This document shows, piece by piece, positions 10,651 to 27,419 of a stretch of 64,000 nt of DNA (position 1 is the stretch's first letter; every line of letters begins with the position of its first letter). The stretch lies in the NCBI RefSeq assembly GCF_988243305.1, contig NZ_OZ547136.1; one strand, given 5' to 3'. The translations under genes and the position numbers were made by a program. The notes beneath the pieces are model-generated. The model was given only the letters and a program-made list of their open reading frames with translations, was not told the DNA's origin and searched no databases.

Positions 10651-10652
10651 CG

Positions 10653-12466: not shown

Positions 12467-12470
12467 AGAA

Positions 12471-13520
12471 TTATTCCCTGATTCGGATTGTGATGGCGGG
12501 CGGTACTTTCGGCTGACCAATAAAGCTGGTTCTGCCGAGGCGGGAGCTGGCCGGATCGCCAAGGTGCATCCCTTTAGCCTGCTGTGGTGCCAGGCACAGC
12601 CGTAAATCCCAGGCAAACTGGTCGCGCAGAATAAAGGAAAGGAACATGGTCAGCGGCAGGTGATTTTCGCCATCGGGTAAAAATGAGAGATAACGCTCCC
12701 GCGACAGGCCGCCAATCTGCAACAGGAATTTTCCGCTGCGATCCGGCACCCGTGCGCCGAGGGTAAAATTAACGCCGAGTATGGAGCGTCCCGGAATATG
12801 TCCAGCCGTTTTTCCTTTCGGATTACGTACACCCAGCCGGTTCTGGTGTGCCGGATCAATGGCGACTTTACGCAGTTGCCAGCGTTCAATGGTGACATCC
12901 GGCAAATCAAAACAGTGCGACACAAGATTACAGATGACCTCCGGCGCGCGGCCTGGTGTTGCCAGAATTCCGGCGTAGGCCAGCATTTTGCTGTGGTTAA
13001 TGGCAAGCCTGTCACGCACGCTCTGATTACCCAGCCCGACCAGTGCGTACATGCGCTGTGAAAAGGTGTCAGTACCGCCGTTACGAAAGCAGATGTAGTA
13101 GCGGTATTTGCGCCAGGCATGATAGGCAAACTGTGTCCAGCGGTGGCTGAATAGATCGAGAAATTCTTTCAGGCCGTCTTCGTTCTGTGCGGACTCCTGC
13201 GCCATCTGATCCAGATAATAGCCCGGTAGCGGCGACTGGCTGCCGGAAAAACCCAGGAACCGGGTTTGCAGTACATACTGTCCGTTCTGGCTACGGGAAA
13301 GCGCACTCAGGTCCGTACCCGGAAAACCGATACTGGCGTCAGAGCTGAAACGCACGATCTCCCGGGCAGGCTCGGTACGCAGGGAAATGTCCTGGCCCGG
13401 CGTGCCATACCGACGGTACAGCGCCTCCATTAGCACATAGAAATTGCAGTTGCGCACATCCGCCGGTAACGGCGGTTTTGCCGCTATATCAGGGCGTGCT
13501 GGCCCATTTTCTCCTGCCAT
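12471..13520 (-). CDS. tssG: T6SS baseplate protein TssG
   Basis: 349 aa; operon position between tssF and tagH; the 37-nt overlap with tssF means the true start could be the internal ATG at 13430. Confidence 0.8.
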   Translation of the reverse strand: MAGENGPARPDIAAKPPLPADVRNCNFYVLMEALYRRYGTPGQDISLRTEPAREIVRFSSDASIGFPGTDLSALSRSQNGQYVLQTRFLGFSGSQSPLPGYYLDQMAQESAQNEDGLKEFLDLFSHRWTQFAYHAWRKYRYYICFRNGGTDTFSQRMYALVGLGNQSVRDRLAINHSKMLAYAGILATPGRAPEVICNLVSHCFDLPDVTIERWQLRKVAIDPAHQNRLGVRNPKGKTAGHIPGRSILGVNFTLGARVPDRSGKFLLQIGGLSRERYLSFLPDGENHLPLTMFLSFILRDQFAWDLRLCLAPQQAKGMHLGDPASSRLGRTSFIGQPKVPPAITIRIRE

Positions 13521-15343
13521 TCCCAGGACTCCTGACTTTCCGTGTTAATGATTTTCAGACAGTGATACGAATTGATGCTGGCGTAGAGGGCAAAAAAGTG
13601 CGAGAGCACGGTACCCAGAAGATAAATTTCACCTTCGCAGATAAACGGATCGGGACGTATCCACAGCGTGGTCGCCAGCCCGCGAACCGGTACGCCTTTA
13701 AACAACCTGTCAACAGGTTTGGTTTCGAGTTTTTCTATGGCATCCAGTTTCTGGCGTGACAGTCTGGCCCGCTGCGGATGGTGAGCACCCGGCAGGTCGA
13801 AGGTCCGCAGGATCTGGATCAGTGTCTCCCTGTCCAGCAGGGAGAGGTAGTTCAGGTTCATCGCGGAAATCAGCGACCAGTGCATGTCGCCGTCCGTGAC
13901 CGGCCAGAGCGGTTGTGTCGGGCGCGTAACATTATGAAATGAGGCCACCGCCGGGTTTTTGTTGACGGCCACGCAGATATCGCCGGTATGCAGCCGGGCA
14001 GGGATCATACGGTTGGTACAGATTAATGACGTGGTGATCACATCATCATTAAACCGTGAGCTGTCCGGAATGCTGCCGTCCGCATGGACAAAGGCGATGG
14101 AATGTTCAAGCCCATGGTGAAGCAGGGACGTTTTAGTCCGGTGATGCCAGTAGACGACTTCCCGCTGGCGGCTGTACTCCATCTGGTGCTGGAAACTTTC
14201 AAATTCGGGCCAGACACGCACCTGGCTGCCGGGGCTGGAATCAGTCCCTGAAACTTTGATTTTACTGGTGACTGTGCTGACCTGAAAAATGTCATAGGCG
14301 TCCGGATGCTTATGGCTGGCGCGCAGCGGGTATTCCGCCATCCGCCCATCCGGCCTGACGGGTTCCGCATAATGCGTAAACAGGTTAATGGCTGGCGTAC
14401 AGTGCAGACGCAGCGAATCCTGGCGCAGCTTGATGTCGGCAGGTAATGGGCGGTTAAAGTGCAGGCGCAGCGTAAACGCACTCACCGGGAAATCGTCTGG
14501 TAGCGGCGCAACATCGCGCAGATGGAAAAAGAAGAAGGCTTCGGGATAGCAGAAATACTCCTGAAGCACGCGGTAGCCGTTGTGGACATTTTTCGGCCAC
14601 GGCAGCAGGGCATCCTGGTTGTCAAAACCCGCAGCATCCAGCCACAGATCCGGCAGCGGCAGGCTGTGCTCTCCGGCAATCAGTTCCGCATCCATCAGGC
14701 ATTCGCAAAACCACAGATAAAGCTGGTGTCGGGTATAATCGTCTTCATTACCCAGCCAGAACGTGATTTTGTTCAGGTCAAGCATGGCGGGGGAGACATT
14801 GTTATCTGCGGTAAAACTGATATCTATGATGCCTTCTTTCAGACTGCTGGCGTTGCGGGTGTCGAGAATGCGCAGCGGTTGCAGCCAGATATCGCGCGCC
14901 AGCGTGAAATGGCAGGCTACGGAAGAAACGATTTTATCATGATTGTCAGCCAGCACCTTCTGAGCAGCCGGGGAGGACTTTTCTGATCGGCTTCTGATCA
15001 GTTCATTACGGCAGACCTGAACAGGGACTTTTAACTGATCGGTTTTGGGTTCATAGGCAATAACCGTCATGGCCGGAACCGGGCGTAAATAGTTTGCCCA
15101 CAGCATACGGATCAGCCCATGGGTGAATTCGGGAAATTCGTCTTCAAGTTTCTGGCGCAGGCTACCGGACATAAAGGCAAAGGCTTCCATCAGTCGCTCC
15201 ACATCCGGATCACCCTCTTTCTCGGCCAGAAAATGGGCCAGATGCGGTTTTTCCTGCGCCAACAGTTTGCCAAGCTGGCGCAGATAATCCAGTTCTTCGC
15301 GGTAGTAACGTTCTTCAAAAGCCACAGAGATCACTCCACACAA
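13484..15343 (-). CDS. tssF: T6SS baseplate protein TssF
   Basis: 619 aa; N-terminal EERYYREELDYLRQLG motif typical of TssF. Confidence 0.85.
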   Translation of the reverse strand: MCGVISVAFEERYYREELDYLRQLGKLLAQEKPHLAHFLAEKEGDPDVERLMEAFAFMSGSLRQKLEDEFPEFTHGLIRMLWANYLRPVPAMTVIAYEPKTDQLKVPVQVCRNELIRSRSEKSSPAAQKVLADNHDKIVSSVACHFTLARDIWLQPLRILDTRNASSLKEGIIDISFTADNNVSPAMLDLNKITFWLGNEDDYTRHQLYLWFCECLMDAELIAGEHSLPLPDLWLDAAGFDNQDALLPWPKNVHNGYRVLQEYFCYPEAFFFFHLRDVAPLPDDFPVSAFTLRLHFNRPLPADIKLRQDSLRLHCTPAINLFTHYAEPVRPDGRMAEYPLRASHKHPDAYDIFQVSTVTSKIKVSGTDSSPGSQVRVWPEFESFQHQMEYSRQREVVYWHHRTKTSLLHHGLEHSIAFVHADGSIPDSSRFNDDVITTSLICTNRMIPARLHTGDICVAVNKNPAVASFHNVTRPTQPLWPVTDGDMHWSLISAMNLNYLSLLDRETLIQILRTFDLPGAHHPQRARLSRQKLDAIEKLETKPVDRLFKGVPVRGLATTLWIRPDPFICEGEIYLLGTVLSHFFALYASINSYHCLKIINTESQESWEWQEKMGQHALI

Positions 15344-15756
15344 TAGCGTTGATGGTTGTCCAGCAAAATGTCAAATTCAAACACTCCCCTGGTCTCGCTG
15401 ACATCGATCGTAGCCACAATATGAAAACGCAGTTCCACAGGGGCGTATTCATCCGGTGCCGCAGCCGTAACAACAACATCGGTAATACGAGGTTCGTAAT
15501 GTAAAATGCACTGGCTAATGGACTTACGGATTTCTCGTCTGAAATCGCTGGAGGCCAGCGATTCATCATTTAAATCAGTAATCCCCAGCTCCGGTGAGCC
15601 ATAACAACTGCCGGAGCGGGTATTCAGGACCTGTCGCAGGTTACGTCTGATGGAACGTATCAGTGCTTCTTTTGGATTCTGATATGAAGGCGGATTTGCC
15701 GCCTCACGGATACGTTCAAAAAGACTGCCGGTTGGTCCTGAATCCCGTCTTTGCAC
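15331..15756 (-). CDS. tssE: T6SS baseplate protein TssE (gp25-like)
   Basis: 141 aa; gp25/GPW-like small baseplate protein downstream of tssC. Confidence 0.85.
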   Translation of the reverse strand: MQRRDSGPTGSLFERIREAANPPSYQNPKEALIRSIRRNLRQVLNTRSGSCYGSPELGITDLNDESLASSDFRREIRKSISQCILHYEPRITDVVVTAAAPDEYAPVELRFHIVATIDVSETRGVFEFDILLDNHQRYCVE

Positions 15757-15760
15757 CGGA

Positions 15761-17245
15761 TTATTCCTTATCCAGTCGTCCGACCAGGCTCAGGTCGAAA
15801 CTGGCACCCATGTATTTAAAATGCGGTCTGACAGAAATCGCGACCTGGTACCAGCCCGGCTCACCATCCACATCCAGTACCTCGATCTTAGCCTGACGCA
15901 AAGGCCGGTGGCTGCGGACTTCGGCAGGCGGATTTTCCTGGTCAGCAACATACTGGCGAATCCAGGTGTTCAGCTCACGCTCCAGGTCACTACGTTCTTT
16001 CCATGAGCCAAGCTGTTCGCGCTGAATTACCTTGATGTAATGCGCTAACCTGCTGATAACAAACAAGTATGGCAGCTGGGTGCCGAGTTTATAGTTGGTC
16101 TCCGCAGCCTTGCCTTCGGGGGTTTTGGGGAATGTTTTGGGTTTCTGCACCGAGTTGGCCGAGAAAAAGCACGCATTATCAGACCCTTTACGCATGGTCA
16201 GTGTGATAAAGCCCTCTTCCGCCAGCTCATACTCTCTCCGGTCAGTGATCAACACTTCAGTCGGAATTTTTGCCTGCATTTGCCCCATGGATTCATACAG
16301 ATGCACCGGGAGGTCTTTGACTGCGCCGCCGCTGGAAGGGCCAATAATATTTGGGCACCAGCGATACTTAGCAAAACTTTCCGCCAGGTTGGCGGCCAGT
16401 AAAAACGAGGTATTCCCCCACAGATAAGACTCATGACTCTGGCTGACATCTTCATGGTAACGGAAGGTTTTGACAGGGTTTTCATCCGGTGAGTAAGGGT
16501 GGCGCAGCAGGAACCGGGGGGCGGTCAGGCCCAGGTAACGGGAATCTTCCGATTCACGCAGGGCGCGCCAGCGGGAGTAGGCCGGGCCTTCAAAGATGGC
16601 ACCCGGTTCTTTGATCCCCGGTAACTCTGTCCATGAATCCAGACCGAAAAATTCGGATGATACTGACGACAGGAACGGGCTGTGCGCCATCGCGCTGACC
16701 TGGCTGATATATTTCAGCAACTTCATATCCGGCGTGGTGTTCTTAAAGGCAAAGTTGCCGATTACCGCCGCCACTGGCTCACCGCCAAATTGTCCGTAAC
16801 CGCTTGAATATACATGCTTGTAATACGCAGACTGCGTGATTTCAGGTGCAAATTCGAAATCATCCAGCAGTTCTTCCTGAGTGACATTCAGGAAATGGAC
16901 TTTGATGTTTTCCCGTGTATCCGCGCGTTCAACCAGCAGCTTCAGCGAGCGCAGCAGGGATTCCAGTTCCTGAAACTCCGGGGCATGAATAATGGCATCC
17001 ATCTGCCTGCTGGTTCGGGCATCAATATCAGCAATCATGGCGTCAACGGCCAGGATATTGATAGGTTCAGCGCTACTGTCGCCCTGTAACATGGCGGCAA
17101 TAAAGGCGCTCACGCCCTGGCGGGTGATATCGTAGCTTTCTGATTTAGGCTGGACGCGGGTTTGCGCCATGATTTCATCAAGCAGAGATGGGGGCGCGGC
17201 GGTTTGAGACGCGCTGACGGGAGCAATTTCTTCCTTTACTGACAT
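15761..17245 (-). CDS. tssC: T6SS contractile sheath large subunit TssC (VipB)
   Basis: 494 aa; size and sequence character of TssC; follows tssB. Confidence 0.9.
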   Translation of the reverse strand: MSVKEEIAPVSASQTAAPPSLLDEIMAQTRVQPKSESYDITRQGVSAFIAAMLQGDSSAEPINILAVDAMIADIDARTSRQMDAIIHAPEFQELESLLRSLKLLVERADTRENIKVHFLNVTQEELLDDFEFAPEITQSAYYKHVYSSGYGQFGGEPVAAVIGNFAFKNTTPDMKLLKYISQVSAMAHSPFLSSVSSEFFGLDSWTELPGIKEPGAIFEGPAYSRWRALRESEDSRYLGLTAPRFLLRHPYSPDENPVKTFRYHEDVSQSHESYLWGNTSFLLAANLAESFAKYRWCPNIIGPSSGGAVKDLPVHLYESMGQMQAKIPTEVLITDRREYELAEEGFITLTMRKGSDNACFFSANSVQKPKTFPKTPEGKAAETNYKLGTQLPYLFVISRLAHYIKVIQREQLGSWKERSDLERELNTWIRQYVADQENPPAEVRSHRPLRQAKIEVLDVDGEPGWYQVAISVRPHFKYMGASFDLSLVGRLDKE

Positions 17246-17267
17246 ACTGAAAATCCTTCTGTGAAAA

Positions 17268-17771
17268 TTATTTCTGAACGGCGATACCCAGTTCCTGGAT
17301 CAGCTGCTCGCGGCTGTCTTCGTTTTCCAGTAGCGCCTGAAGTTGTGCGCGGAAGGCCGGAATATTGCCTAGTGGAGACTTAAGTGCGACCAGTGCCTCA
17401 CGCAGCTCCAGCAGGCGCTTTATTTCCGGCACCTGACTGGCAATATGGTCAGGAGAAAGGTCATCCATAGATTTGACTTTCAGGTTGACGTACATTTGCT
17501 CATTGGGAGCGTCACTGAGTTCAGCCGGAACAACAAACTCCCGTTCAATGTCAGCTTCTGAAATGACTGCGTTGAGGTTATAGCGGTTGATAGCAATGGC
17601 AGTTCGCTCATCCAACGGCGTGTTATCTGGTTTCCCTTTCAGATTGCCGGTGATCAATAAATTCAGCGGCAATTCGATATCAGCAGCCACCCCATCAACT
17701 TTTGGTGTATACCGAACGCTGATTCTTTCTTTCGGCGCGACACTGCCGCCATTGTTGTTCATTTTGCTCAT
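17268..17771 (-). CDS. tssB: T6SS contractile sheath small subunit TssB (VipA)
   Basis: ORF track 17268..17822 starts at a TTG; preferred start is the ATG at 17771 (MSKMNNNGGSVAPKERISVRY...), giving about 167 aa; first gene of the operon. Confidence 0.85.
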   Translation of the reverse strand: MSKMNNNGGSVAPKERISVRYTPKVDGVAADIELPLNLLITGNLKGKPDNTPLDERTAIAINRYNLNAVISEADIEREFVVPAELSDAPNEQMYVNLKVKSMDDLSPDHIASQVPEIKRLLELREALVALKSPLGNIPAFRAQLQALLENEDSREQLIQELGIAVQK

Positions 17772-18474
17772 AAAAATGTTCCCGTTCAGGCCATGAGCAC
17801 AGCATTTTCGTACTGCATACAAATACCGACAATACCGTTTCAGTGGCAGTTAGATAATGTAACCTTCTTTCTGTTGTGATCGGTATTCTACTCATGAAAT
17901 AAAATATTAAAAGAACTATTTATATTTTTGAAAGAGATGTATCCTTCATTATTAATACATGATAGTGAAATCAATTTTGGTATTTATAGACTTGGTGAAT
18001 ATAATTTTACGGCCAATAAAGTGCAATAACACATTGATTTATATGTGTTTATTAAATTGATTAATAAGTTTTGTGTATGGTTTTATAAATTAGTTAATTG
18101 CTAGCAATACATCATAAGAAATTCCTTTAAGGAATATCTTAATTGCGTGCAGGAACGATGGTGAAGTAAGTGTTGTAATAATTTATTTTTGACGAAACTG
18201 TAGGTTTTTATGGGGATAAGGATACGTTATGGATAATTCTACTGTTGATGTTGATATATTTTTAGCTTATGTGACCGTGTTCTGAAATTGACTAAAAATA
18301 TATTTAAACACCATAAAAGAGTTTTTCGGTAGGTGCTAATTACGTGTGCCTGTAACTCGAATAAAGAAAAGGGTGTGGTTCCTGATGTGAGCCGCATCAC
18401 ACTCTAACCTGTCGGGGATTAACGACGGGTTGTTCGTAAAAACAGCAGTTGATAATTTCACAAGGAGTTCACAA
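17772..18474. promoter_or_regulatory. AT-rich divergent control region between tssB (minus) and hcp (plus)
   Basis: About 700 bp of non-coding, strongly AT-rich DNA between divergent operon starts; contains two short perfect or near-perfect palindromes at 18097-18108 and 18121-18135. Confidence 0.5.
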
Positions 18475-18993
18475 ATGCCAACCCCATGTTACATTTCTAT
18501 TACGGGCCAGACCCAGGGGAACATCACTGCCGGTGCTTTCACCGCGGATTCTGTCGGCAATATCTACGTGCAGGGGCACGAAGATGAAATGCTGGTGCAG
18601 GAGTTTTTGCACAACGTTACTGTTCCAACCGATCCGCAGTCTGGCCAGCCTTCCGGCCAGCGCGCGCACAAACCGTTCATTTTCACCGTGGCGCTGAACA
18701 AAGCCGTTCCGCTGCTGTACAACGCGCTGGCCTCCGGTGAAATGCTGCCGAAAGTGGAGCTGCACTGGTGGCGTACTTCAGTTGAAGGCAAGCAGGAGCA
18801 CTACTTCACCACACGTCTTACTGACGCGACGATTGTGGACATGAACCTGCACATGCCGCACTGCCAGGACCCTGCACAGCGTGAGTTTACGCAATTGCTC
18901 GCAGTATCACTGGCATACCGTAAGGTTGAGTGGGAGCACATCAAATCCGGTACTTCTGGTGCCGATGACTGGCGTGCACCGCTGGAAGCATAA
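18475..18993 (+). CDS. hcp: T6SS inner tube protein Hcp (TssD)
   Basis: ATG at 18475 (MPTPCYISITGQTQGNITAGAF...) preceded by AAGGAG 7 nt upstream; 172 aa; ORF track start 18430 is an upstream TTG. Confidence 0.9.
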   Translation: MPTPCYISITGQTQGNITAGAFTADSVGNIYVQGHEDEMLVQEFLHNVTVPTDPQSGQPSGQRAHKPFIFTVALNKAVPLLYNALASGEMLPKVELHWWRTSVEGKQEHYFTTRLTDATIVDMNLHMPHCQDPAQREFTQLLAVSLAYRKVEWEHIKSGTSGADDWRAPLEA

Positions 18994-19004
18994 ATCTGAG
19001 TCAA

Positions 19005-19038
19005 CAACATCCTGCCTTCGTGCAGGATGTTGTTTTTG
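19005..19038 (+). terminator. Rho-independent terminator/attenuator between hcp and vgrG
   Basis: 11-bp perfect stem (CAACATCCTGC / GCAGGATGTTG) with a 6-nt loop, followed by TTTTT, 12 nt after the hcp stop. Confidence 0.6.
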
Positions 19039-19213
19039 TACGTGTAAAAAATGAGTGTCAGTAAGGAGTTACGCTTTCATGAGGGAGATGGCGGATGCCG
19101 GAAACCCGGGCGGTAGCGTACCTGAAAATGTAAAGATGAGTGTAACGCTGCACTGGCACCCTTTGCTGCATGGTGAGAATCATTTGGTCCGTGAATAAAT
19201 CAGGGGGGTCATT

Positions 19214-21196
19214 ATGTCCTTAAAAGGTCTGCGCTTTACGCTGGAGGTTGACGGCCAGGAGCCGGACACCTTTGCAGTGGTGAATTTCAGGTTAATCCAG
19301 AACCAGTCATATCCGTTTGTGATGAGTGTGGATGTTGCCAGCGACTCTTTTATGCAGACGGCGGAGATGCTGCTGGAGAAGAAGGCGACACTGACCATCT
19401 GGCAGGGCGCAGTGGCGCAGCGTTATGTCACCGGCGTGGTGGCGGGTTTTGGCATGCAGGAGAATAACGGCTGGCAGATGCGTTATCACCTGCGTATTGA
19501 GCCGCCGTTATGGCGGTGCGGGCTGCGGCAGAACTTCCGTATCTTCCAGCAGCAGGATATCCGGACGATATCGGCCACGTTACTGAACGAGAACGGCGTC
19601 ACGGAGTGGACGCCGCTGTTTTATGAGGACCATCCGGCGCGGGAGTTCTGTGTCCAGTACGGGGAGTCGGACCTGGCGTTTCTGTCCCGGCTGTGGGCGG
19701 AGGAGGGAATTTTCTTCTTTGAGCGGTTTGCGGCGGACAGTCCGGAGCAGAAGCTGACGCTGTGCGACGATGTGGCGGGGCTGTCACAGGCGGGAGAGCT
19801 TCCGTTTAACCCGGACACATCGACAGGAGCGGAGACGGAGTGTGTCAGTATGTTCCGTTATGAGGCGCATGTCCGCCCGTCGTCGGTGCAGAGCCAGGAT
19901 TACACGTTTAAGGTGCCGGACTGGCCGGGGATGTATGAGCAGCAGGGTGAGAACCTGAACGGACAGCTGGCGCAGTATGAGATATTTGATTATCCGGGAA
20001 GGTTCAAGGACGAGCAGCACGGCAAGGATTTCACGCTGTACCAGATGGGCAGCCTGCGCAGTGATGCGGAAAAGGCCACAGGGCAGAGTAATTCACCGAA
20101 GCTGTGGCCGGGAACGCAGTTTACGCTGACGGGGCATCCGCAGAAGATGCTGAACCGTGAATGGCAGGTGGTACAGAGCATACTGTCAGGAAGCCAGCCG
20201 CAGGCGCTGCACGGCAGCCAGGGGAGAGGAACCACGCTGGGAAATCAGTTAGAGGTGATACCGGCAGACCGGACGTGGCGTCCACGGCTGCAAAGCAAAC
20301 CGAAGGTGGACGGGCCACAGAGCGCCATTGTCACCGGGCCTGCGGGAGAGGAAATCTTCTGCGACGAACATGGCCGGGTACGGGTGAAGTTCCACTGGGA
20401 CCGTTATCACGGGATGACGGAGGCGAGTTCATGCTGGGTGCGGGTATCGCAGGCGTGGGCGGGGCCGGGTTTCGGCAATCTGGCGATACCGCGGGTGGGT
20501 CAGGAGGTGATTGTTGATTTCCTGAACGGCGACCCGGACCAGCCGATAATCATGGGACGGACATACCATGAGGACAACCGTTCGCCGGGGAGTCTGCCGG
20601 GGACGAAGACGCAGATGACGATACGGTCGAAGACCTATAAAGGAAGCGGATTTAACGAACTGCGCTTTGAGGACGCCACAGATAAGGAACAGGTCTATAT
20701 TCACGCGCAGAAGAACATGGATACGGAAGTGCTGAATGACCGGACGACGGACGTGAAGCATGACCACACGGAAACCATTGGTAACGACCAGAAGATAACG
20801 GTGGGGTTGGGCCAGACGGTGAATGTGGGGAGCAAAAAGGAAGGTGGTCATGACCAGAAAGTGACGGTAGCGAACGATCAGCATCTCACGATAAAAAATG
20901 ACCGGCACAAGGTTGTAAATAACAACCAGACAAGCAAGGTGACGGGAACTGATACCGAAGAAGTCGTCAAAAAACAGAGTATTAAAATAGGTGATAATTA
21001 CGAACTGAAAGTTGAGCATGGTACAAAAATCATATCTGGGGACAGTATTGAGCTAATTTGTGGGCAGGGAGAGAGCGGGACTTGTTCCATAAAACTGGAG
21101 AAAACAGGAAAGATAATAATACGGGGGACGGAGTTTCTATTTGAGGCTACCGGTCCTGTAGATATTAAAGGAAAAGATATTCATCTGAACGGATAG
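19214..21196 (+). CDS. vgrG: T6SS spike protein VgrG (TssI), no C-terminal effector extension
   Basis: 660 aa; gp27/gp5-like organisation ending in beta-helix repeats; GGGGGG-type ribosome-binding site upstream. Confidence 0.9.
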   Translation: MSLKGLRFTLEVDGQEPDTFAVVNFRLIQNQSYPFVMSVDVASDSFMQTAEMLLEKKATLTIWQGAVAQRYVTGVVAGFGMQENNGWQMRYHLRIEPPLWRCGLRQNFRIFQQQDIRTISATLLNENGVTEWTPLFYEDHPAREFCVQYGESDLAFLSRLWAEEGIFFFERFAADSPEQKLTLCDDVAGLSQAGELPFNPDTSTGAETECVSMFRYEAHVRPSSVQSQDYTFKVPDWPGMYEQQGENLNGQLAQYEIFDYPGRFKDEQHGKDFTLYQMGSLRSDAEKATGQSNSPKLWPGTQFTLTGHPQKMLNREWQVVQSILSGSQPQALHGSQGRGTTLGNQLEVIPADRTWRPRLQSKPKVDGPQSAIVTGPAGEEIFCDEHGRVRVKFHWDRYHGMTEASSCWVRVSQAWAGPGFGNLAIPRVGQEVIVDFLNGDPDQPIIMGRTYHEDNRSPGSLPGTKTQMTIRSKTYKGSGFNELRFEDATDKEQVYIHAQKNMDTEVLNDRTTDVKHDHTETIGNDQKITVGLGQTVNVGSKKEGGHDQKVTVANDQHLTIKNDRHKVVNNNQTSKVTGTDTEEVVKKQSIKIGDNYELKVEHGTKIISGDSIELICGQGESGTCSIKLEKTGKIIIRGTEFLFEATGPVDIKGKDIHLNG

Positions 21197-21302
21197 TGCA
21201 GGATATAAAACATGGTGATTGTATTTGCTTTATACGCCTGTGAATCACCATTTGTGATTGTTTAAATTAATCATAGCATGACTTATTCAGGAATCAATAA
21301 GC

Positions 21303-22349
21303 ATGATAGAAATGAAAAATAACACACCATTTCCTTTGTTGTCATTTGAAAAATATGGTCGTTATGGTCTTTTGTTTGATGTTATTGCTATTAAAATGTC
21401 ATTGCGAATTAAAAATGGATTTTATGCTGATCTTGCTGAGTTTCAAAAAGAATTGTCCATGTCTGATGAATACTATGGGGAGTCTGAAACAAGTAGTCTA
21501 AAATCTGAAACAGACTTAGTTCTTTGTAAAAGAAATACAGATATTCACGTGACAGGTAGTGCTCATGCCCCTCCAGGGGATAAGTCTAAGTGGAAGGCTT
21601 GTGTGAGGGTTAATAGTTTTTCTAAAGAACTGAGTTTATCTGGTGTCCGCTACTTACAATATGAGCGAAATCGTTGGCAGATGAGCTTACCAGATAAAAT
21701 TATTAATGTTCCTCTACGCTATGAGCTTGCTTACGGTGGTATTTGGCAACCAGATGGTATGGAGAAATTGGTTTTTTCAGCAAACCCTGTAGGTTGTGGA
21801 TATTATCCTGATATTTCTCAACTTAATACAAGTTGTCAATATAAACTCCCACAAATAACCAGCTCTGCTTTGTCAGAAAACGCTACCATTTTTAATGGGG
21901 AATCTGACTTTTTTCAAGGTGTTGGCCCTGTATCTCGATGGTGGAAAAGTCGCCTCCAGTATGCAGGAACCTACAATGAAGTATGGCGTGAAAAGCGCTA
22001 TCCCTATTTGCCGGATGATTTTGATGAGCGGTTCTACAATAGTGCTCATCCGGATATGATATACACGGGGTTTCTCTCTGGCGATGAAAACATCTCTCTT
22101 GAAGGTTTTTTTAAATTTGAACAGGTTGTTAAGACAAAATTGCCAGGTATACGACCTGTACTTATATTAAAAACCAAGCATAATACATCACATATGTTCT
22201 TACCTGTTGCGGATACAATGGTTATCGATTTAAGTCGACAGGAAATATACCTTACCTGGAGATTAACAATACCTGATTTTTTTGGAATGAAAGAAGGAGT
22301 GCTGAGTTGTATTATTCCTGAATGTATAGGGAAAAAATATTATGGGTAA
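21303..22349 (+). CDS. T6SS adaptor-like protein (DUF2169-type suspected from context and size)
   Basis: 348-aa AT-rich ORF immediately downstream of vgrG; 8-nt overlap with the following PAAR-like gene; the family call rests on genomic context, not on a motif I can verify. Confidence 0.45.
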   Translation: MIEMKNNTPFPLLSFEKYGRYGLLFDVIAIKMSLRIKNGFYADLAEFQKELSMSDEYYGESETSSLKSETDLVLCKRNTDIHVTGSAHAPPGDKSKWKACVRVNSFSKELSLSGVRYLQYERNRWQMSLPDKIINVPLRYELAYGGIWQPDGMEKLVFSANPVGCGYYPDISQLNTSCQYKLPQITSSALSENATIFNGESDFFQGVGPVSRWWKSRLQYAGTYNEVWREKRYPYLPDDFDERFYNSAHPDMIYTGFLSGDENISLEGFFKFEQVVKTKLPGIRPVLILKTKHNTSHMFLPVADTMVIDLSRQEIYLTWRLTIPDFFGMKEGVLSCIIPECIGKKYYG

Positions 22350-23382
22350 CTATCATATCGGGGATGGTGAATGTAGATTTAGAGTCGTGTGTTCTTCACC
22401 AGATGTATGTGAAGTAGGAGGTTACAAGGTTCCTTTTGACAGTTACCAGACTTTAGATAGTGAAAGACAGTACAGTTCAACGGTATGGGCGCGTGGATGC
22501 AGAGCTTTAAATGTTGGTTCAGTGATTGCTGGAACTCAAAGTAATGCCGGTAAAGGTGTCATATCCGGTACATCTCAAGGAACGGGTGACTGTGTTATTT
22601 TAACGGGAAGTCCGACTGTAACAATAGAAGGGAAACCTGTTGCTTATCATGGTTCAGTTGTTGGGATTAATAACCATAACTGCCTTGGTAAATTGTATAC
22701 CAAAATAAAATCACCAATGATTTCTGTCATTGATAAAACTTTTAGTTATGAAAGGACTGCTGAAGTAATACACGATTTACTGCTTCTGAAGGATCTCCTT
22801 TCTGTTGGGAATATTTTGGGCGGAGATATTTCACCTGAGGTTAAAAATGATTTATTTCAAATAAAAGATCCTGACCAATCATGGGGGGAGTTTTTTTCAA
22901 TAAAGAATATCAGAGAATCTCTCAGGAATGGTATTGAAGGAGATAAATCTCAGATCAGAGAATGGTTTGGAGAGAACACACTTACTCAAATGGGCAATGG
23001 AGCAATCACCACTTTACATGGTGTGGCGGATTTAGCCTTAGTTACATTCGATGCTCTGTTAGATACGGCAACGGCAACGGTTGCTTGCCCGATAGGCGAA
23101 GATGGGTTATGTGAACAGGCAAATATAAATTTAAATGAAAAAGAACAGGCTTTATTTAATATTAGTAATTCATTGATAAATGGGCAAGCATGGGATGCAC
23201 TTAAAAAAATGATAATGGATACAAATAATGGTGATCAGATTGCTCTGGAGCATTTTGCCAGCTTTTTATGGGGCTTTATGATACCCGCAAAAATACCAGA
23301 AGAAAATATCTCTGGGAAAGTATTTGTAGAGCCAGTAGTTTTAGAAGGTGGTGCTGGTGGCAATTGGACAGTATTTGATTAG
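22342..23382 (+). CDS. PAAR-like (DUF4150-type) T6SS spike-tip protein with C-terminal extension
   Basis: N-terminus CRFRVVCSSPDVCEVGGYKVPFDSY...GDCVILTGSPTVTIEGKPVAYHGSVV resembles PAAR-like DUF4150 domains; 346 aa; ends at a TAG that is in frame with the next ORF. Confidence 0.65.
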   Translation: MGNYHIGDGECRFRVVCSSPDVCEVGGYKVPFDSYQTLDSERQYSSTVWARGCRALNVGSVIAGTQSNAGKGVISGTSQGTGDCVILTGSPTVTIEGKPVAYHGSVVGINNHNCLGKLYTKIKSPMISVIDKTFSYERTAEVIHDLLLLKDLLSVGNILGGDISPEVKNDLFQIKDPDQSWGEFFSIKNIRESLRNGIEGDKSQIREWFGENTLTQMGNGAITTLHGVADLALVTFDALLDTATATVACPIGEDGLCEQANINLNEKEQALFNISNSLINGQAWDALKKMIMDTNNGDQIALEHFASFLWGFMIPAKIPEENISGKVFVEPVVLEGGAGGNWTVFD

Positions 23383-23409
23383 GTTTTAGATTCAAATGTA
23401 ATAAAGCAA

Positions 23410-23781
23410 TTGACTTTAACAGGCTGTGGAGCGGCCTGTGGGGAAATGTTGCTTAGGGATAGGTATATTTTTGTCACGCAAAATGTAATTGGAACAGAAT
23501 TAACATCTATGACGTCGCTGGCAAACAAGCTTAATAAATTTGATGTCGGCTGGGAAGGGAATGAAGTGAGCGAATCTAGTTTATATGCCCTCAGTAATAC
23601 TGGTTCATGGGGAGCAATGATGTGGGATTCTGGAAGTAAAGTAGGGCATTGGGTACTTGTTAAGGGTGTTGATGATGCTGGGAATGTGATAATATATGAT
23701 CCATATCAAGGGAGTCGATATCTGATGACTGAACAGGAATTTAAGGAGGTATGGAATGGGCATAGTGTTTACAAACCATAA
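23410..23781 (+). CDS. Papain-fold (C39-like) cysteine peptidase domain, candidate toxin domain; possibly the 3' part of a disrupted PAAR-toxin fusion
   Basis: Candidate catalytic motifs CGAACGEM (Cys), GHWVLVKG (His), IIYDPYQG (Asp); same reading frame as 22342..23382 with only one TAG between them; ORF-track start is a TTG. Confidence 0.5.
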   Translation: MTLTGCGAACGEMLLRDRYIFVTQNVIGTELTSMTSLANKLNKFDVGWEGNEVSESSLYALSNTGSWGAMMWDSGSKVGHWVLVKGVDDAGNVIIYDPYQGSRYLMTEQEFKEVWNGHSVYKP

Positions 23782-24046
23782 TATTGATTTGTTATCGGTT
23801 GAATTTGATGAGATTACAAAAAATTGTAATTACACTTTTAGTGTAGATGGAGAGACGGCTATCTTTACTGCTAGAATATCAATAATAAGAAATATAAAGG
23901 GAATTAAATATAGCGAAGAACTTGATAAATTTATAATGTCAATAATGCCATTGCAGCCTAAAGTATCAAAAATTTTGGGAGGTGTTACTTGGGATTGTAT
24001 TTGTGGTAAGGAAGTTGGATTTCCTGTGAGATTAATTGGTAAGTGA
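23756..24046 (+). CDS. Small protein, candidate cognate immunity protein
   Basis: 96-aa ORF whose ATG overlaps the last 26 nt of the peptidase-domain ORF; no signal peptide; AT-rich. Confidence 0.35.
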   Translation: MGIVFTNHNIDLLSVEFDEITKNCNYTFSVDGETAIFTARISIIRNIKGIKYSEELDKFIMSIMPLQPKVSKILGGVTWDCICGKEVGFPVRLIGK

Positions 24047-24303
24047 AGGGTGGTGAGGTATTTCTATATTTTTTTTCGTGAAAGTCTTTAAAACTAAAAT
24101 TATCTTGTTGGGAGCCCAAGGTGAGATCATAAAACGTATTATTTTATAAATATTGTTATGCAGGGAAAGGTCAAGTAATGCTGCTTTTTTGTACTAAATA
24201 ATTCGCATTTTATGTTCAATAATTGAGGTGTTCCTTATTACCTAAAGCTGTTTTTCATTGCTTATACATGATCAAATACTCATTGCATAATTAAGGGGGC
24301 AAA

Positions 24304-25250
24304 ATGGAACTTAAAAAATTGATGGAACATATTTCTGTTATCCCCGATTACAGGCAAGCCTGGAAAGTGGAACATAAATTGCCAGATATTCTATCTGTTA
24401 ACTATTTGCGCCGTTATTTCTGGTGCATAAGGCTGGGAAGATATAGAGGATTTGGGGAAACACATCTCGATTTTTTGAAGTGATATGGTGATTTTGAAAA
24501 TGGTATTCCTGTTCACGATATCATTGCCAGAGTTGTATCCTGTATCAGTCCTGCAAAATTTTACGAGTGCTTTATTAACTGGATGCGTGACTGTCATTCT
24601 TCAGATGATAAAGACATCATCGCAATTGATGGAAAAACGCTCCGGCACTCTTATGATAAAAGTCGTCAAAAGGGAGCAATTTATGTCATTAAAATCCGTC
24701 TTCATATTGTTTGCATGTCTCTGATGAATTTATTGATTTTACGTTTGAATGGAAAGGGCTGAAGAAATTATGCATGGCAGTCTCATTTCGCTCAATAATA
24801 GCAGAACAAAAGAAAAATCCCGAAATGACGGTCAGATATTATAGCATTTCTGCTGATTTAACCGCAGAGAAGTTCGCCACAGCGAACCGAAATCACTGGC
24901 AAGTGGAGAATAAATTGCACTGGCATCTGGACGTGGTAATGAATAAAGACGACTTCAAAATAAGAAGAGGAAATGCAGCAGAATTATTTTCAGGGATACG
25001 GAAGATCGCTATTAATATTTTAACGAAAGATAAGATAATCAAGGCAGGGGCAAGATGTAAGATGTGAAAAGCAGCTGCGGACAGAGACTACCTCGCGTCA
25101 GTCCTTGCGGGGGCGGGCTTTCGTAATCTTGTTCTGCAAGGGATGATAAAAAGTGCAACTTTATTCCACGCAGCTATTTAGACAGCGTACAGTAAACAAA
25201 CGAAAGTTGTTATTTCAATGGTCAGGGCAAGAGCATGAAGTGTTTACTAC
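24304..25250 (+). mobile_element. Degenerate ISAs1-family (H-repeat) element with disrupted transposase
   Basis: N-terminus [26 protein letters not shown]... and C-terminal fragment ...[27 protein letters not shown]...[17 protein letters not shown]... match the ISAs1/H-repeat transposase from memory; frameshifts and an internal deletion are evident; right boundary approximate. Confidence 0.7.
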
Positions 25251-25295: not shown

Positions 25296-25799
25296 ATGGT
25301 AGATATTGTCGAGGCCGATAAAACGGATATTTATTTCATTCAGGAGAGTGTTTATGGCAAAATCGGGTTGCCAGCTTTGGGTAATACAATAGGACCATCC
25401 GCACAGCAAGTTGTTAAAAAGGTATTCGCTGTCGTTAAAGAACGAGATAAGACACATGCAAAACAGAGATTATTGTTGGAATATAATGGTAACAAACTCT
25501 GGATGAATGCTATTGATGGCAGTGAAGCTATCCTACCAACAGAATTTTCTAAGCGGTACGAACTTTCATTATTCAATACTACTAATTTTGGAGAAGATCC
25601 TTTTCCTGATGTTAATTTATATAATAATATGAAATCAAGTTTTTTTGTAAGGTTTGGTGGAACATCCCATCCCGAGGCTTGGGCTATTTATAATGCAAGT
25701 ACGAAAGAGGTTAAATATATAGAAACTGCAAGAGAAATTGATAAAATATTCAGTGATTTTAACTTGAGTGGTACATTGCCAATTCACATTGGTCAATGA
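25296..25799 (+). CDS. Hypothetical protein (cassette gene 1, unknown function)
   Basis: 167-aa ORF with GGAGGG ribosome-binding site 5-6 nt upstream of the ATG; no signal peptide; AT-rich; flanked by ISAs1 remnants. Confidence 0.4.
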   Translation: MVDIVEADKTDIYFIQESVYGKIGLPALGNTIGPSAQQVVKKVFAVVKERDKTHAKQRLLLEYNGNKLWMNAIDGSEAILPTEFSKRYELSLFNTTNFGEDPFPDVNLYNNMKSSFFVRFGGTSHPEAWAIYNASTKEVKYIETAREIDKIFSDFNLSGTLPIHIGQ

Positions 25800-25864
25800 T
25801 TTTTAAATTGTGTGATTAAATAATTGAACATTAATGATGATTTATAGCATCATTATTCTATAAC

Positions 25865-26377
25865 ATGAATAAACGGATTGAATGTGTTATGTTAAAAATG
25901 AGTTTATACGTAATAATATTGTTATTTTCCTTTCAGATTAGTGCAGCCATTACTAGCAAGGAAAGTGAGGTTGTTTCACCATTATTAATGGATGTTAATT
26001 CTTCACTAACAATGGAAAATATATCTGAATTATCCACATCATCGGAACCATCGCAACAGGGGGTATTTCCTGTAATATGTACTCGACTTCATCCTGGCTC
26101 CGTAATGAAACGCCAGTTATTAACCGGCTGGGGGCCTGTTTTTATAATTGGTGATGATCCTTTTTCTCTGCGCTGGATGAGTGAACATCTGGAGATCCTT
26201 AAATCGCTAAATGCCCTTGGTTTGGTTGTTAATGTTGAATCAGTAGAACGAATGGAGGTATTACAGCAGCGGGCTGATGGGTTATTGTTATTGCCAGTTA
26301 TCTGCGATAATTTCGTGCAAACTCTGCAATTAAATGCTTATCCGGTATTAATCACAGAGATGGAAATATCACAATGA
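25865..26377 (+). CDS. Hypothetical exported protein (cassette gene 2, unknown function)
   Basis: 170-aa ORF; signal-peptide-like segment MSLYVIILLFSFQISAAI; true start may be an internal ATG at 25889 or 25898. Confidence 0.4.
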   Translation: MNKRIECVMLKMSLYVIILLFSFQISAAITSKESEVVSPLLMDVNSSLTMENISELSTSSEPSQQGVFPVICTRLHPGSVMKRQLLTGWGPVFIIGDDPFSLRWMSEHLEILKSLNALGLVVNVESVERMEVLQQRADGLLLLPVICDNFVQTLQLNAYPVLITEMEISQ

Positions 26378-26409
26378 TTAATAACATAATTACTGCAAAT
26401 AATATCGTA

Positions 26410-26612
26410 ATTTTGAAAATGGTAATCCTGTTCACGACACCATAATTAGAGTTATGTCTTGTATCCGTTCAGTATAATTTCACGAATGCTTTATTAACTG
26501 GATGCGAGATTGCCATTCATCAAATGATAAAGACGTCATCGCAATTGATGGAAAAGCGCTTCCACACTCCTATGATAAAAGTGGTCGCAGGAGAGCGGGC
26601 TTTCGTAGTCAT
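26410..26612 (+). mobile_element. Second, shorter ISAs1 (H-repeat) transposase remnant
   Basis: About 180 bp at roughly 85% identity to 24491-24672 (encodes ...FENGNPVHDT...[29 protein letters not shown]...), joined directly to H-repeat 3'-end-like sequence (GGGCTTTCGTA). Confidence 0.6.
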
Positions 26613-26648: not shown

Positions 26649-27419
26649 TCACCACAACCTAAACTCATCCGCATCCCGCCATGCCGGAAACTTTTCTCTA
26701 TACTCCCGCAACGCCATCATCGACAGCTCCGCATCAATGCGCGTTGCCTGATGCGCGTCGGCAGTAGCGATAATCTCGCCTTGCGGATTAATCACCCGGC
26801 TGTCACCACGATAATGGCAGCCGTTGCCATCGCTGCCGACGCGATTGCATCCCGCCACATACGCCTGATTCTCAATCGCGCGGGCTGTCAGCAATGCCTG
26901 CCAGTGCAGAGAGCGCGGAGCAGGCCAGTTGGCGACGTACAGGGCGAGGTCATAATCGTTGAGATTGCGCGACCACACCGGAAAACGTAAGTCGTAGCAC
27001 ACCAGCGGCAAAATACGCCAGCCGCGCCATTCCACAATCACTCGCGCATTGCCCGCTTTATAATGTAGATGCTCATCTGCCATGCGGAACAGATGACGCT
27101 TATCATAAAAATGTACCGTGCCGCCCGGCTCAACCAGCAAAAAGCGGTTAACCGAACCAGACTCCGTTTGTAATGCAACACTGCCTGCAATCAGCGCATT
27201 GCACTGCTGCGCTTTGGCTGTCATCCAGTTCACTACGTCATCTTGTGCTAGCGACGAAGCTGCCGCTTCCATGGCAAAGCCGCTGGTAAACATCTCCGGT
27301 AGAACGATCACATCGCGTCCGGTAATACCTTCCAGTTGACGATCAAAATGACGCAGGTTGGCAGGACCATCCATCCACACCAGTGGTTGCTGCAAAAGCG
27401 TAATCTTCAAACCAGGCAC
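26649..27419 (-). CDS. yafV: Omega-amidase (nitrilase-family C-N hydrolase) YafV
   Basis: Protein matches E. coli YafV as recalled; ORF track start 27428; probable start 9 nt downstream. Confidence 0.85.

Follow-up and report, generated by a model that had tools for sequence, protein, structure and literature searches.

The vgrG gene and its surroundings

Does the vgrG gene of an Escherichia coli T6SS locus have a single ancestry, or did its last hundred codons arrive together with the effector genes that follow? The question is raised by contig NZ_OZ547136.1 (assembly GCF_988243305.1), from which we analysed one stretch of 64,000 nucleotides, here called the window. An earlier note, made from the letters of this DNA, had placed a compositional break inside vgrG near position 20880 and suggested that recombination had exchanged the 3' end of the gene together with its cargo. 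The features that bear on this proposal are as follows.

50-17822, minus strand: T6SS structural genes, tssM-like to tssB, as open reading frames; GC 0.51 to 0.61 per kb
18475-18993, plus strand: hcp (tssD), directly 5' of vgrG; TIGR03344, 208.8 bits
19214-21196, plus strand: vgrG/tssI, 660 amino acids; TIGR03361, 605.8 bits (cutoff 186), amino acids 8-519
19214-20770, plus strand: conserved, GC-rich vgrG core, common to E. coli paralogues with different cargo
20665-20905, plus strand: junction zone in the gp5-like beta-helix repeats, from the homology ends of each cargo class and the SNP-density step
20891-21196, plus strand: AT-rich vgrG C terminus, about 100 codons, from the changepoint and shuffle test; GC 0.40, GC3 0.39
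21303-22349, plus strand: DUF2169 (TvpA/Tap2-type) accessory gene; PDB 8vth, E=2e-14; RefSeq name DUF2169 family T6SS accessory protein
22342-23781, plus strand: cpe1 (RefSeq name); PAAR-like carrier, amino acids 15-115, and papain-like/C39 cysteine protease toxin, amino acids 352-474
23240-23260, plus strand: second, nested junction between carrier/linker and toxin domain, from the comparison with strain ET350
23756-24046, plus strand: cpi1 immunity gene (RefSeq annotation); 100% identical across four strains
24186-25137, plus strand: degenerate ISAs1-family transposase remnant (NF033564 match) with an internal deletion of ~312 nt; right edge of the cassette
25296-25799, plus strand: hypothetical open reading frame in the AT-rich island
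25865-26377, plus strand: PFL_4695-type ICE protein gene in the AT-rich island
26401-26597, plus strand: second ISAs1 fragment in the AT-rich island
26649-28046: resident chromosomal flank, yafV (minus strand) and ivy (plus strand), from annotation; GC back to 0.50-0.55

The assignment of the gene as tssI/vgrG is secure, with its score well past the curated cutoff and a second family match to TIGR01646 (420 bits). Pfam domains were found for Phage_GPD (34-328), Phage_base_V (385-451), and Gp5_trimer_C (468-542 and 545-603), so that the gp27-like, gp5 OB-fold, and beta-helix domains are all present, and amino acids 37-555 are matched by solved VgrG structures in the PDB. Both hcp and the T6SS structural cluster adjoin it. 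Syntenic genes in strains KC-Dl-1 and PMV-1 are annotated as tssF, tssE, tssC, and tssB, and the name hcp stands at the syntenic position in the same two annotations. With a GC3 of 0.52-0.69, the structural genes at 50-17822 are the GC-rich resident context of the locus; the remainder of the island on the other side, 25296-26597, has a GC of 0.35-0.38.

The cargo genes were identified from Pfam, PDB, and RefSeq names; NCBIfam assigned neither the DUF2169 protein nor Cpe1 to a family. PF09937 is present on homologues of the DUF2169 protein, including a 99%-identical cluster representative, and the matched structure, 8vth, is itself a DUF2169 protein. Cpe1 carries Tox-PAAR-like (PF13665, amino acids 15-115) and Peptidase_C39 (amino acids 352-474) domains, and its toxin domain matches the solved Cpe1tox structure, PDB 9l5u, at E=2.5e-94. 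This homology and the adjacent cpi1 identify a Cpe1/Cpi1 effector/immunity pair. The DUF2169 gene lies directly 3' of vgrG, and the product of the next gene carries a PAAR-like (DUF4150/PF13665) domain at its N terminus, the arrangement of a Class I Tvp/Tap2 locus.

A compositional break within vgrG

In a 200-nt sliding profile, GC is 0.55-0.65 up to about 20600, 0.42-0.46 in 20800-21200, and 0.29-0.40 downstream. A single-breakpoint maximum-likelihood scan of 19214-24046 put the break at 20891 (2-unit support 20820-20917), separating a left part with a GC of 0.581 from a right part with 0.374 (LRT 189). Within vgrG, GC3 falls from 0.72 to 0.35, the step lying at codon ~577 (support 535-581); its maximum LRT of 46.1 was reached in 0 of 2000 codon-order shuffles, which gave a mean of 4.8 and a maximum of 19.3. 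The break proposed near 20880 is thus real, and neither sliding GC nor codon usage is uniform over 19214-24046. The further claim that the gene resembles the T6SS core on one side and the effector genes on the other was also borne out: GC3 shifts toward that of the cargo genes (DUF2169 0.28, cpe1 0.29, and cpi1 0.23, against 0.52-0.73 for T6SS core genes), the C-terminal value of 0.39 being intermediate between core (0.73) and cargo (0.28).

How much of this reflects foreign DNA was examined by rewriting the last 101 codons with the codon preferences of the T6SS core. The expected GC is 0.464, compared with 0.399 observed and 0.581 in the core; about two thirds of the drop in total GC is amino acid composition, the C terminus being rich in Lys, Ile, Asn, and Thr, and about one third lies at synonymous sites. 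Because of that two-thirds share, and because the vgrGs of Hafnia and L009, which belong to the same C-terminal family, also show a lower total GC over their final 300 nt with no GC3 break, total GC alone overstates the signal, and after the decomposition it was rejected as proof of foreign origin by itself. The synonymous shift in GC3 is the cleaner signal of foreign DNA, and the argument for foreign origin therefore rests on GC3 and on comparative data.

The compositional break is allele-specific. E. coli vgrG paralogues with DUF4123 or M35 cargo have a GC of 0.53-0.56 in the matching 3' part. The position of the break (20891) coincides with the end of homology to other alleles (20877-20903), and the composition beyond it matches that of the downstream island. 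A domain border was also considered for the seam and rejected, the second Gp5_trimer_C match (amino acids 545-603) lying inside the AT-rich part.

Discordant relatives of the core and the C terminus

A census of 5,426 E. coli genomes separated the two parts of the gene. The vgrG core was found in 686 of them, mostly at 90-97% identity, while the 3' segment past ~20903 was found in about 300-335, in single copy and always with the DUF2169 gene adjoining; in 327 of 335 genomes with the segment it was at least 99% identical. A conserved core (686 genomes) is thus joined to an allele-specific C terminus (about 300) among paralogues and strains of one species. None of the 5,426 genomes had the C terminus without a DUF2169 neighbour, and in other strains or genera DUF2169 lay downstream at each of the eight loci whose C terminus is homologous, so that the counter-case, the same C terminus beside unrelated loading machinery, was sought in both sets and not found. 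A contig-level genome scan for the C terminus, made with a single peptide pattern, confirmed only three loci, which extends the linkage to DUF2169 but is too small a number for a census across species.

Relatives from farther away were few. When the C-terminal 120 amino acids were compared with proteins in a word-indexed search, the matches were E. coli fragments only, with no full-length or foreign proteins, and carried no information on origin. A donor of the cassette was not found, the closest non-E. coli DUF2169 relatives (Salmonella salamae, Escherichia sp., and Hafnia) being 55-59% identical. Two candidates for a second lineage, P0018 (84%) and P0004 (80%), were rejected as frameshifted or low-quality E. 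coli contigs with 96-99% DNA identity.

The last 100 residues are 55-62% identical to those of DUF2169-linked VgrGs (Hafnia, L009, and L007) and 13-46% identical to those of E. coli paralogues with other cargo, with only 13-37% for the M35 and DUF4123 alleles. The core shows the reverse, being closer to the E. coli paralogues. Against Hafnia paralvei, identity is 77% in the core, 62% in the C terminus, 56% in DUF2169, and 63% in the PAAR-like domain; against E. coli NC101, the corresponding values are 95%, 46%, 35%, and 54%. In identity matrices, linkage, and nearest relatives alike, the C terminus co-varies with adaptor and carrier, and the core is discordant.

Alignment of the alleles, a check suggested in the earlier note, confined the divergence to the 3' end. 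In a sliding comparison with five alleles, the gene is made up of blocks of 82-100% identity as far as about 20700; the core is a mosaic that serves as a recombination substrate. Homology to the DUF4123 class ends at 20665-20714, to a distant vgrG class at 20802, to M35 and other classes at 20877-20903, and to the NC101 class after about 20894. The last motif in common is TVANDQ, with its end at about 20882.

Strains with the same cargo give a more recent view. Compared with UTI89-type strains, the core is 93-94% identical, and the DNA from the C terminus through cpi1 is 99.2-100% identical, with a sharp step in SNP density at 20773-20795 in a pairwise comparison of five genomes and BLAST identity bands, which is not a formal recombination test. 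By this comparison, the edge of the recently exchanged haplotype appears to lie at 20773-20795, some 100 nt on the 5' side of the break in composition, so that the left end of the cassette would carry a short, conserved, GC-rich stretch of beta-helix. The proposal that the last ~100 codons were co-acquired with the cargo is supported, with the amendment that the recent unit begins some 100 nt earlier.

The core closest to that of the window (97.1%) is from PS10-3, where it is attached to a different cargo module. Strain Z1323HEC0462 differs from the window at 5 positions over 7.5 kb and has the order hcp, vgrG_A with DUF4123 cargo, PAAR, and vgrG_B with the Cpe1 cassette, whereas in the window hcp is joined directly to the cassette-bearing vgrG. 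The tandem vgrG_A and vgrG_B of that strain show no difference up to 20665, and concerted evolution of the cores is therefore active. In Ec15103, the cassette is attached to the upstream flank of an orphan island. Comparison with Z1323HEC0462 and Ec15103 shows what appears to be core recombination in the near ancestry of the window, and the high diversity of cores stems partly from gene conversion among paralogues, rather than from old age.

A nested toxin module and the right edge

The toxin does not belong to the same unit as the C terminus. Strain ET350 is near-identical to the window from 20714 to ~23230 and unalignable beyond; it has the same C terminus, DUF2169, and carrier and a different toxin/immunity pair. 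Orphan toxin and immunity fragments in O145 and 33E begin at window position 23280. From these alignments, the co-inherited unit would be the VgrG C terminus, the DUF2169 chaperone, and the PAAR-like carrier domain of Cpe1, and the toxin and immunity genes would be a nested submodule with a junction of their own at about 23240. The idea that the C terminus goes with adaptor and effector thus stands for the DUF2169 protein and the PAAR-like carrier and fails for the toxin.

The window lacks an intact carrier-toxin reading frame. Relative to Ec15103, its cpe1 has a nonsense mutation, E347* (GAG to TAG, 23380-23382), between carrier and toxin domain; the same stop occurs in Z1323HEC0462, and cpe1 is annotated as split in NY1601. 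At the right edge, the same deleted ISAs1 remnant, ~91.7% identical, lies 3' of unrelated cargo modules in 33E and PS10-3.

Origin of the seam

We consider it highly probable that 20880-20890, approximately, is a seam between two DNA ancestries in vgrG, a resident core and an acquired, AT-rich cargo cassette exchanged by recombination. Upstream of the seam would lie the resident GC-rich spike core, made up of the gp27/gp5-like domains and the first beta-helix repeats, common to several E. coli vgrG paralogues and kept similar by gene conversion. Downstream would lie a horizontally acquired cassette ending in ISAs1 debris and containing the last ~100 VgrG codons (beta-helix end and tip), the DUF2169 chaperone, the Cpe1 fusion of PAAR-like carrier and toxin, and Cpi1. 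The core and the DNA of the beta-helix repeats would presumably provide the left-hand homology for homologous recombination, such that a crossover anywhere in the core could install, remove, or relocate a full compatible loading set and leave the secretion machine untouched. The toxin/immunity pair could be exchanged separately at the second junction, about 23240. Exchange of the C terminus with its cargo by recombination inside vgrG, the central suggestion of the earlier note, is thereby supported by composition, census, incongruence, and the SNP step.

Segment 20891-21196 is a cassette-specific spike tip. From the literature, its beta-helix end would be the docking surface for the cognate PAAR-like domain, chaperoned by DUF2169, and these three parts would therefore have to be inherited together. 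Stand-alone DUF2169 proteins chaperone the PAAR-like (DUF4150-type) domain, probably without contact with VgrG (PMC13373197). Given that probable lack of contact, what the C terminus specifies is most likely the PAAR-like tip and not the adaptor. The notion that it picks both adaptor and effector is accordingly retained as to specificity and modified as to the partner.

A rather unlikely course of events is that a whole foreign vgrG, with a core about 75-80% identical to that of E. coli, arrived with the cargo and that gene conversion from resident vgrG paralogues later replaced its first ~1.6 kb. The seam would then be the place where conversion tracts stop as homology ends, and not the point at which a C terminus was swapped. 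The identity of the tandem vgrGs in Z1323HEC0462 to 20665 accords with this as concerted core evolution, as do the blocks of 82-100% identity in the core and the existence of Hafnia-type relatives with a colinear vgrG, whose 77% identical core would be enough to seed conversion. However, the near-identical cassette on cores 6-7% apart also fits direct transfer of the cassette between strains, and none of the alleles compared was an intermediate whose core is foreign in part. Since overwriting would yield the same final locus and the same inherited unit as cassette exchange, we regard it as a variant of that explanation and not a true alternative; swap-in of a C terminus and arrival of a whole gene with later core overwriting may both fit the data.

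It is very improbable that no horizontal event took place, that is, that AT-richness follows from the composition or constraint of the C-terminal beta-helix and that the cargo is AT-rich for unrelated reasons. The GC of 0.464 expected from amino acid composition, well below the 0.581 of the core, would be in keeping with this, as would the Hafnia and L009 genes of the same family with their lower total GC and unbroken GC3. It does not account for the fall in GC3 from 0.73 to 0.39, the lack of a drop at this position in alleles with other cargo, the end of paralogue homology at the same place, or the SNP-density step and discordant nearest relatives. Nothing was found in favour of a chance fluctuation or a chimeric contig, which 0/2000 shuffles and the same junction in about 300 independent complete genomes leave with a negligible probability.

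A broader and more doubtful extension of the cassette-exchange explanation is that the E. coli T6SS-1 vgrG islands are a dedicated exchange system in which a homology arm is maintained on each side. On the left, this arm would consist of the vgrG core together with the gp5-like octapeptide-repeat region, homogenised among paralogues by intragenomic gene conversion. Repeat number in this region varies by 8-residue units, and the cargo classes would join at different repeat registers (20665-20714, 20802, and 20877-20903). The right arm would be the one internally deleted ISAs1 remnant behind unrelated cargo modules. Concerted evolution of the core might then be selected, keeping all cassettes interchangeable.

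Comparison with known systems

Exchange of cargo through vgrG has already been published for Pantoea/Erwinia, Vibrio, and Agrobacterium, and the E. coli locus is an ordinary further example that leaves current understanding unchanged. De Maayer et al. (2011, PMC3235180) reported this GC pattern for T6SS-1 vgrG islands in Pantoea and Erwinia and drew the same conclusion from it, the N-terminal vgrG region having the G+C content of the conserved T6SS core, 63.7% in that case. Those genes mostly have long "evolved" C-terminal extensions, in contrast to the ~100-residue beta-helix end of the 660-amino-acid VgrG here, and that study used composition and gene content only, whereas allele census, SNP density, and discordant nearest relatives are added here.

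In Agrobacterium, recombination within vgrG moves the C-terminal coding part and all downstream genes (Wu et al. 2021, PMC8546570), and C-terminal subtypes of many kinds are joined to one monophyletic COG3501/TIGR03361 core (PMC8546570). The order there is likewise vgrG, DUF2169 (tap2), and a DUF4150 effector, with effector specificity set by the C terminus. That the VgrG C terminus sets effector specificity is attributed to Bondage 2016 and Flaugnatti 2016, as cited in PMC6971182, where VgrG1 and VgrG2 of strain C58 are described from Bondage et al. 2016 as ~92% identical paralogues differing at the C terminus. The Agrobacterium case differs in its alphaproteobacterial host, its toxins, and the lack of emphasis on GC3 contrast, and the present case is known from sequence alone.

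The effector modules of Vibrio cholerae are lower in GC (Unterweger 2014/2015, PMC4557670; Kirchberger 2017, PMC5361080), and the variable C terminus of its VgrG changes together with the genes for adaptor, effector, and immunity. The 5' region of vgrG, which is conserved, serves for homologous recombination there, and immunity genes that have been displaced persist as orphans (all PMC4557670; PMC5361080); the cpe1tox-cpi1 remnants in 33E and O145 are their counterpart. Adaptors in V. cholerae are mostly DUF4123 (Tap-1) or VasW, and natural competence is the proposed route. With the Class I Tvp/Tap2 loci, the window shares the order vgrG, DUF2169, and PAAR-like effector, with no intervening DUF6484 or PRK06147 genes; VgrGs there usually have 700-800 amino acids, compared with 660 here (PMC13373197), and the present assignment is from genes. 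By analogy with these systems (PMC6971182, PMC13373197), delivery of Cpe1 would depend on the cognate VgrG C terminus and DUF2169.

The locus is a clear, quantitatively backed case of a T6SS changing its weapon and not its gun. It defines an obligate travel set of spike tip, DUF2169 chaperone, and PAAR-like carrier, from which toxin and immunity genes are separable. This could be of use in annotating effector cassettes in ExPEC and APEC genomes, in predicting VgrG-effector compatibility, and in engineering chimeric spikes, for which the seam at residues ~520-560 is a natural graft point.

According to a 2019 review (PMC6730261), there was no such analysis for E. coli at that date. The paper on Cpe1/Cpi1 of E. 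coli ATCC 11775 (PMC12136450) does not deal with vgrG, DUF2169, or GC content, "DUF2169" and "GC content" each occurring 0 times. The pair described there is the one found in the window. Compared with RefSeq-annotated cpe1 strains, the window has an identical cpi1 and a 99.2% identical cpe1 (12 differences/1440 nt), which departs from that of ATCC 11775 in its premature stop at codon 347.

Organization of the vgrG locus

The window is from an Escherichia coli chromosome, and megablast found its region 19214-24046 at 100% identity in strain NY1601 and at 97.5 to 98% identity in many ExPEC and APEC genomes. The features are as follows.

50-17822, minus strand, T6SS structural cluster
18475-18993, plus strand, hcp
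19214-21196, plus strand, vgrG, 660 amino acids (TIGR03361 at residues 8-519, 605.8 bits)
21303-22349, plus strand, DUF2169 gene
22342-23781, plus strand, cpe1
23756-24046, plus strand, cpi1
3' of cpi1, ISAs1 debris and two small ORFs
beyond the ISAs1 debris and small ORFs, the resident genes yafV and ivy

The Pfam domains of VgrG are Phage_GPD (residues 34-328), Phage_base_V (385-451), and Gp5_trimer_C (468-542 and 545-603). Cpe1, a papain-like protease with GyrB and ParE as its cleavage targets (PMC12136450), has Tox-PAAR-like (15-115) and Peptidase_C39 (352-474) domains, and its toxin domain matches PDB 9l5u. The divergent tssB-hcp intergenic region (17800-18400) is extremely AT-rich (GC, 0.20 to 0.35) and is probably the promoter region; activation of this T6SS required a Δhns background in the Cpe1 paper (PMC12136450).

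Composition changes within vgrG

An earlier note on this DNA had described a vgrG that is GC-rich up to about 20880 and AT-rich like the effector genes over its last ~100 codons, and both the position and the extent proved accurate. Sliding-window GC was 0.55 to 0.65 up to about 20600, 0.42 to 0.46 at 20800-21200, and 0.29 to 0.40 further on. In a single-changepoint likelihood scan, the break fell at 20891 (support, 20820-20917; LRT, 189), and GC was 0.581 on its left side and 0.374 on its right side. Codon usage was likewise not uniform, as the GC3 of vgrG fell from 0.72 to 0.35 near codon 577 (support, 535-581), with a maximum LRT of 46.1 that was reached by 0 of 2,000 codon-order shuffles (null maximum, 19.3). 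By gene, GC3 was 0.52 to 0.73 in the T6SS genes and the conserved vgrG core (19214-20770), 0.39 in the last 101 vgrG codons, and 0.23 to 0.29 in the DUF2169 gene, cpe1, and cpi1. When the C-terminal residues were recoded with T6SS-core codon preferences, GC still reached only 0.464, indicating that about two-thirds of the total-GC drop comes from the Lys/Ile/Asn/Thr-rich sequence and about one-third is synonymous. The drop is not general to vgrG 3' ends; GC there is 0.53 to 0.56 in E. coli paralogues with DUF4123 or M35 cargo, and it goes down to 0.385 in NC101, which has a second DUF2169-linked allele. The M35-linked vgrG of Nissle 1917 (L002 7001-9406) has its own GC3 break farther 3', at about codon 694 (0.74 to 0.37; LRT, 52.8).

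Homology ends inside the repeat helix

The initial ~1,500 nt of vgrG are a mosaic, with 82 to 100% identity to paralogous alleles that have other cargo. Homology then stops at 20665-20714 for the DUF4123 class, at 20802 for a more distant vgrG class, and at 20877-20903 for the M35 class and others. In the NC101 class, whose vgrG precedes a different DUF2169 gene and PAAR-like effector, it stops after ~20894, yet blastn carries a 79.7% match to 21013. The seam position seems to differ from one cargo class to the next. The final motif common to all alleles, T-V-A-N-D-Q, ends at ~20882; beyond this point, DUF2169-class alleles vary by complete β-helix units of 8 residues, which places the seam in the gp5-like repeat helix. 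A domain border at the seam was considered and rejected.

Core and C terminus have incongruent relatives

Compared with Hafnia paralvei (L005), identity was 77% in the VgrG core, 62% in the C terminus (residues 561-660), 56% in DUF2169, and 63% in the PAAR-like domain, and the Hafnia toxin, an Rhs, is unrelated to that of the window. The corresponding values for E. coli NC101 were 95%, 46%, 35%, and 54%. In 30-residue blocks, residues 571-660 showed 13 to 37% identity to the M35 allele and 17 to 50% to the DUF4123 allele. Thus, across genera, the C terminus clusters with its loading partners, and the core clusters with the host species. The search for relatives identified no donor of the cassette, the AT-rich stretch from the vgrG 3' end through cpi1; only three loci were confirmed by the cross-species scan.

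Among E. coli strains, a handful of genomes and BLAST identity bands were used for SNP density: the UTI89-type strains Ec15103, KC-Dl-1, and PMV-1 were 93.2 to 94.2% identical to the window over 19214-20770 and 99.2 to 100% identical over 20771-24046. The last core SNPs cluster at 20752, 20759, 20760, and 20773 (20795 in PMV-1); after these, no SNP occurs until 21028. Compared with the cassette, the flanks of these strains are less alike, with upstream T6SS genes differing from the window at ~1 to 4% of sites and the yafV/ivy flank ~96.5% identical. The next-nearest core to that of the window (97.1%), in the yncG orphan island of PS10-3, is joined to NC101-type cargo.

A census of 5,426 complete E. 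coli genomes found the core in 686, with at least 99% identity to the window in only 2, 95 to 99% in 186, and 90 to 95% in 502. The cassette (20900-24046) was present in 335, always as one chromosomal copy, and was at least 99% identical in 327 of these. By sensitive blastn, all 300 genomes that match beyond ~21013 also match the DUF2169 gene, and a window-type VgrG C terminus beside other loading genes was found in none of the 5,426.

Proposed mechanism of exchange

The sequence shows that a foreign cassette starts inside the vgrG β-helix. Exchange would proceed by homologous recombination in which the conserved core serves as left arm, and the right end may use an ISAs1 remnant. Such a remnant borders the cassette on the right (24186-25137; also 26401-26597) and, set against an intact copy, lacks ~312 nt internally. 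In 33E and PS10-3, unrelated cargo modules are followed by the same deleted remnant at ~91.7% identity. The loci covered by the remnant comparison were L011 (33E) 4388-5340, L019 10629-11583, and L007 6530-7802. A PFL_4695-family integrating-conjugative-element protein gene (25865-26377; TIGR03765, 120.6 bits) is isolated in the AT-rich island between ISAs1 fragments, with no further ICE genes nearby.

A functional basis for the linkage can be taken from published work. Effector specificity is conferred by the VgrG C terminus, according to work cited in PMC6971182 (Bondage 2016, Flaugnatti 2016). DUF2169 proteins chaperone DUF4150-type PAAR domains and, in the simplest class, are predicted to make no contact with VgrG (PMC13373197). 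Given these findings, what the VgrG C terminus specifies is most likely Cpe1's PAAR-like tip.

A variant of cassette exchange, which we consider unlikely, is that an entire foreign vgrG locus was acquired and its core was afterwards overwritten by gene conversion. This fits the concerted evolution seen in strain Z1323HEC0462, whose tandem vgrG_A and vgrG_B cores are mutually identical up to window-equivalent 20665; it gives the same inheritance unit as a direct C-terminus swap. That amino acid composition alone explains the break is highly improbable, as GC3, the census, and the incongruence all contradict it. The permutation test and ~300 independent genomes exclude chance or artifact.

The compositional split is the same observation as that of De Maayer et al. 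(2011) in Pantoea and Erwinia, where N-terminal vgrG is 63.7% G+C like the core and C-terminal extensions are 46.6% like the island (PMC3235180). Wu et al. (2021) describe recombination within vgrG that moves the part coding for the C terminus together with every downstream gene (PMC8546570), and Vibrio equivalents are known (Kirchberger 2017, PMC5361080; Unterweger 2015, PMC4557670). In light of these Pantoea/Erwinia, Agrobacterium, and Vibrio precedents, the window adds a well-supported case of a mechanism that is already known, not a new mechanism. A 2019 review noted that a study of this kind was then lacking for E. coli (PMC6730261), and vgrG, DUF2169, and GC content are not discussed in the Cpe1 paper (PMC12136450).

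The toxin is a separate submodule

The earlier note had the C terminus co-acquired with the effector module, and the tie holds for DUF2169 and the PAAR-like carrier but not for the toxin/immunity pair. ET350 and the window are nearly identical over 20714 to ~23230, a stretch that covers the VgrG C terminus, DUF2169, and the Cpe1 carrier/linker; beyond it they are unrelated, and ET350 has a different toxin domain and immunity gene. A second modular junction thus lies within cpe1 at ~23240-23260 (ET350, L021 6443-8286), the first ~300 effector residues being common to ET350. Relatives from Hafnia, Escherichia sp., and a metagenome have a homologous C terminus, DUF2169, and PAAR-like domain but Rhs, Ntox15, or EndoU toxins. 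These swaps indicate that the obligatorily linked unit is the spike tip, chaperone, and PAAR-like carrier, and that toxin and immunity gene form a separate submodule.

The window cpe1 has a nonsense mutation (GAG to TAG, E347*, 23380-23382) exactly between the carrier/linker and the C39-like protease domain. The strain would make a PAAR-like protein without toxin, with cpi1 still intact. The split gene also occurs in Z1323HEC0462 and NY1601; UTI89-type strains have an intact 479-amino-acid gene.

A small extra gene lies between vgrG and the DUF2169 gene in Kluyvera georgiana (L017 549-1145), E. whittamii (L018 722-1324), and ET350 (L021 11766-12308). Its ET350 annotation is DUF6484, and it has a weak resemblance to the OB-fold region of VgrG; these loci would belong to another Tvp class than that of the window.

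Recombination among vgrG copies

Z1323HEC0462 shows 5 differences from the window over the 7.5 kb from vgrG to yafV, and its gene order (L020 1-7983) is hcp, vgrG_A with DUF4123 cargo, PAAR, and vgrG_B with the Cpe1 cassette. In the window (18994-19231), hcp is directly joined to the cassette-bearing vgrG, with a match to vgrG_A at 19231. It looks as if the window is the deletion product, or Z1323HEC0462 the insertion product, of recombination between tandem vgrG cores. In Ec15103 (L001 3698-8833), the Cpe1 cassette and yafV-ivy flank are joined to a PAAR/DUF4123 orphan-island flank, and homology to the window begins at the vgrG start, 3 nt before the ATG; this junction suggests a large rearrangement via vgrG copies.

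In the yncG-yddH orphan vgrG island of 33E (L011 6001-8241) and O145 RM9467-C1 (L022 4527-6767), an M35-peptidase module is preceded by a vgrG truncated at its 3' end, a fragment of the cpe1 toxin domain, and an intact cpi1. These genes look like the trace of a cassette that was displaced and left its immunity gene orphaned, resembling the displaced orphan immunity genes of V. cholerae (PMC5361080).
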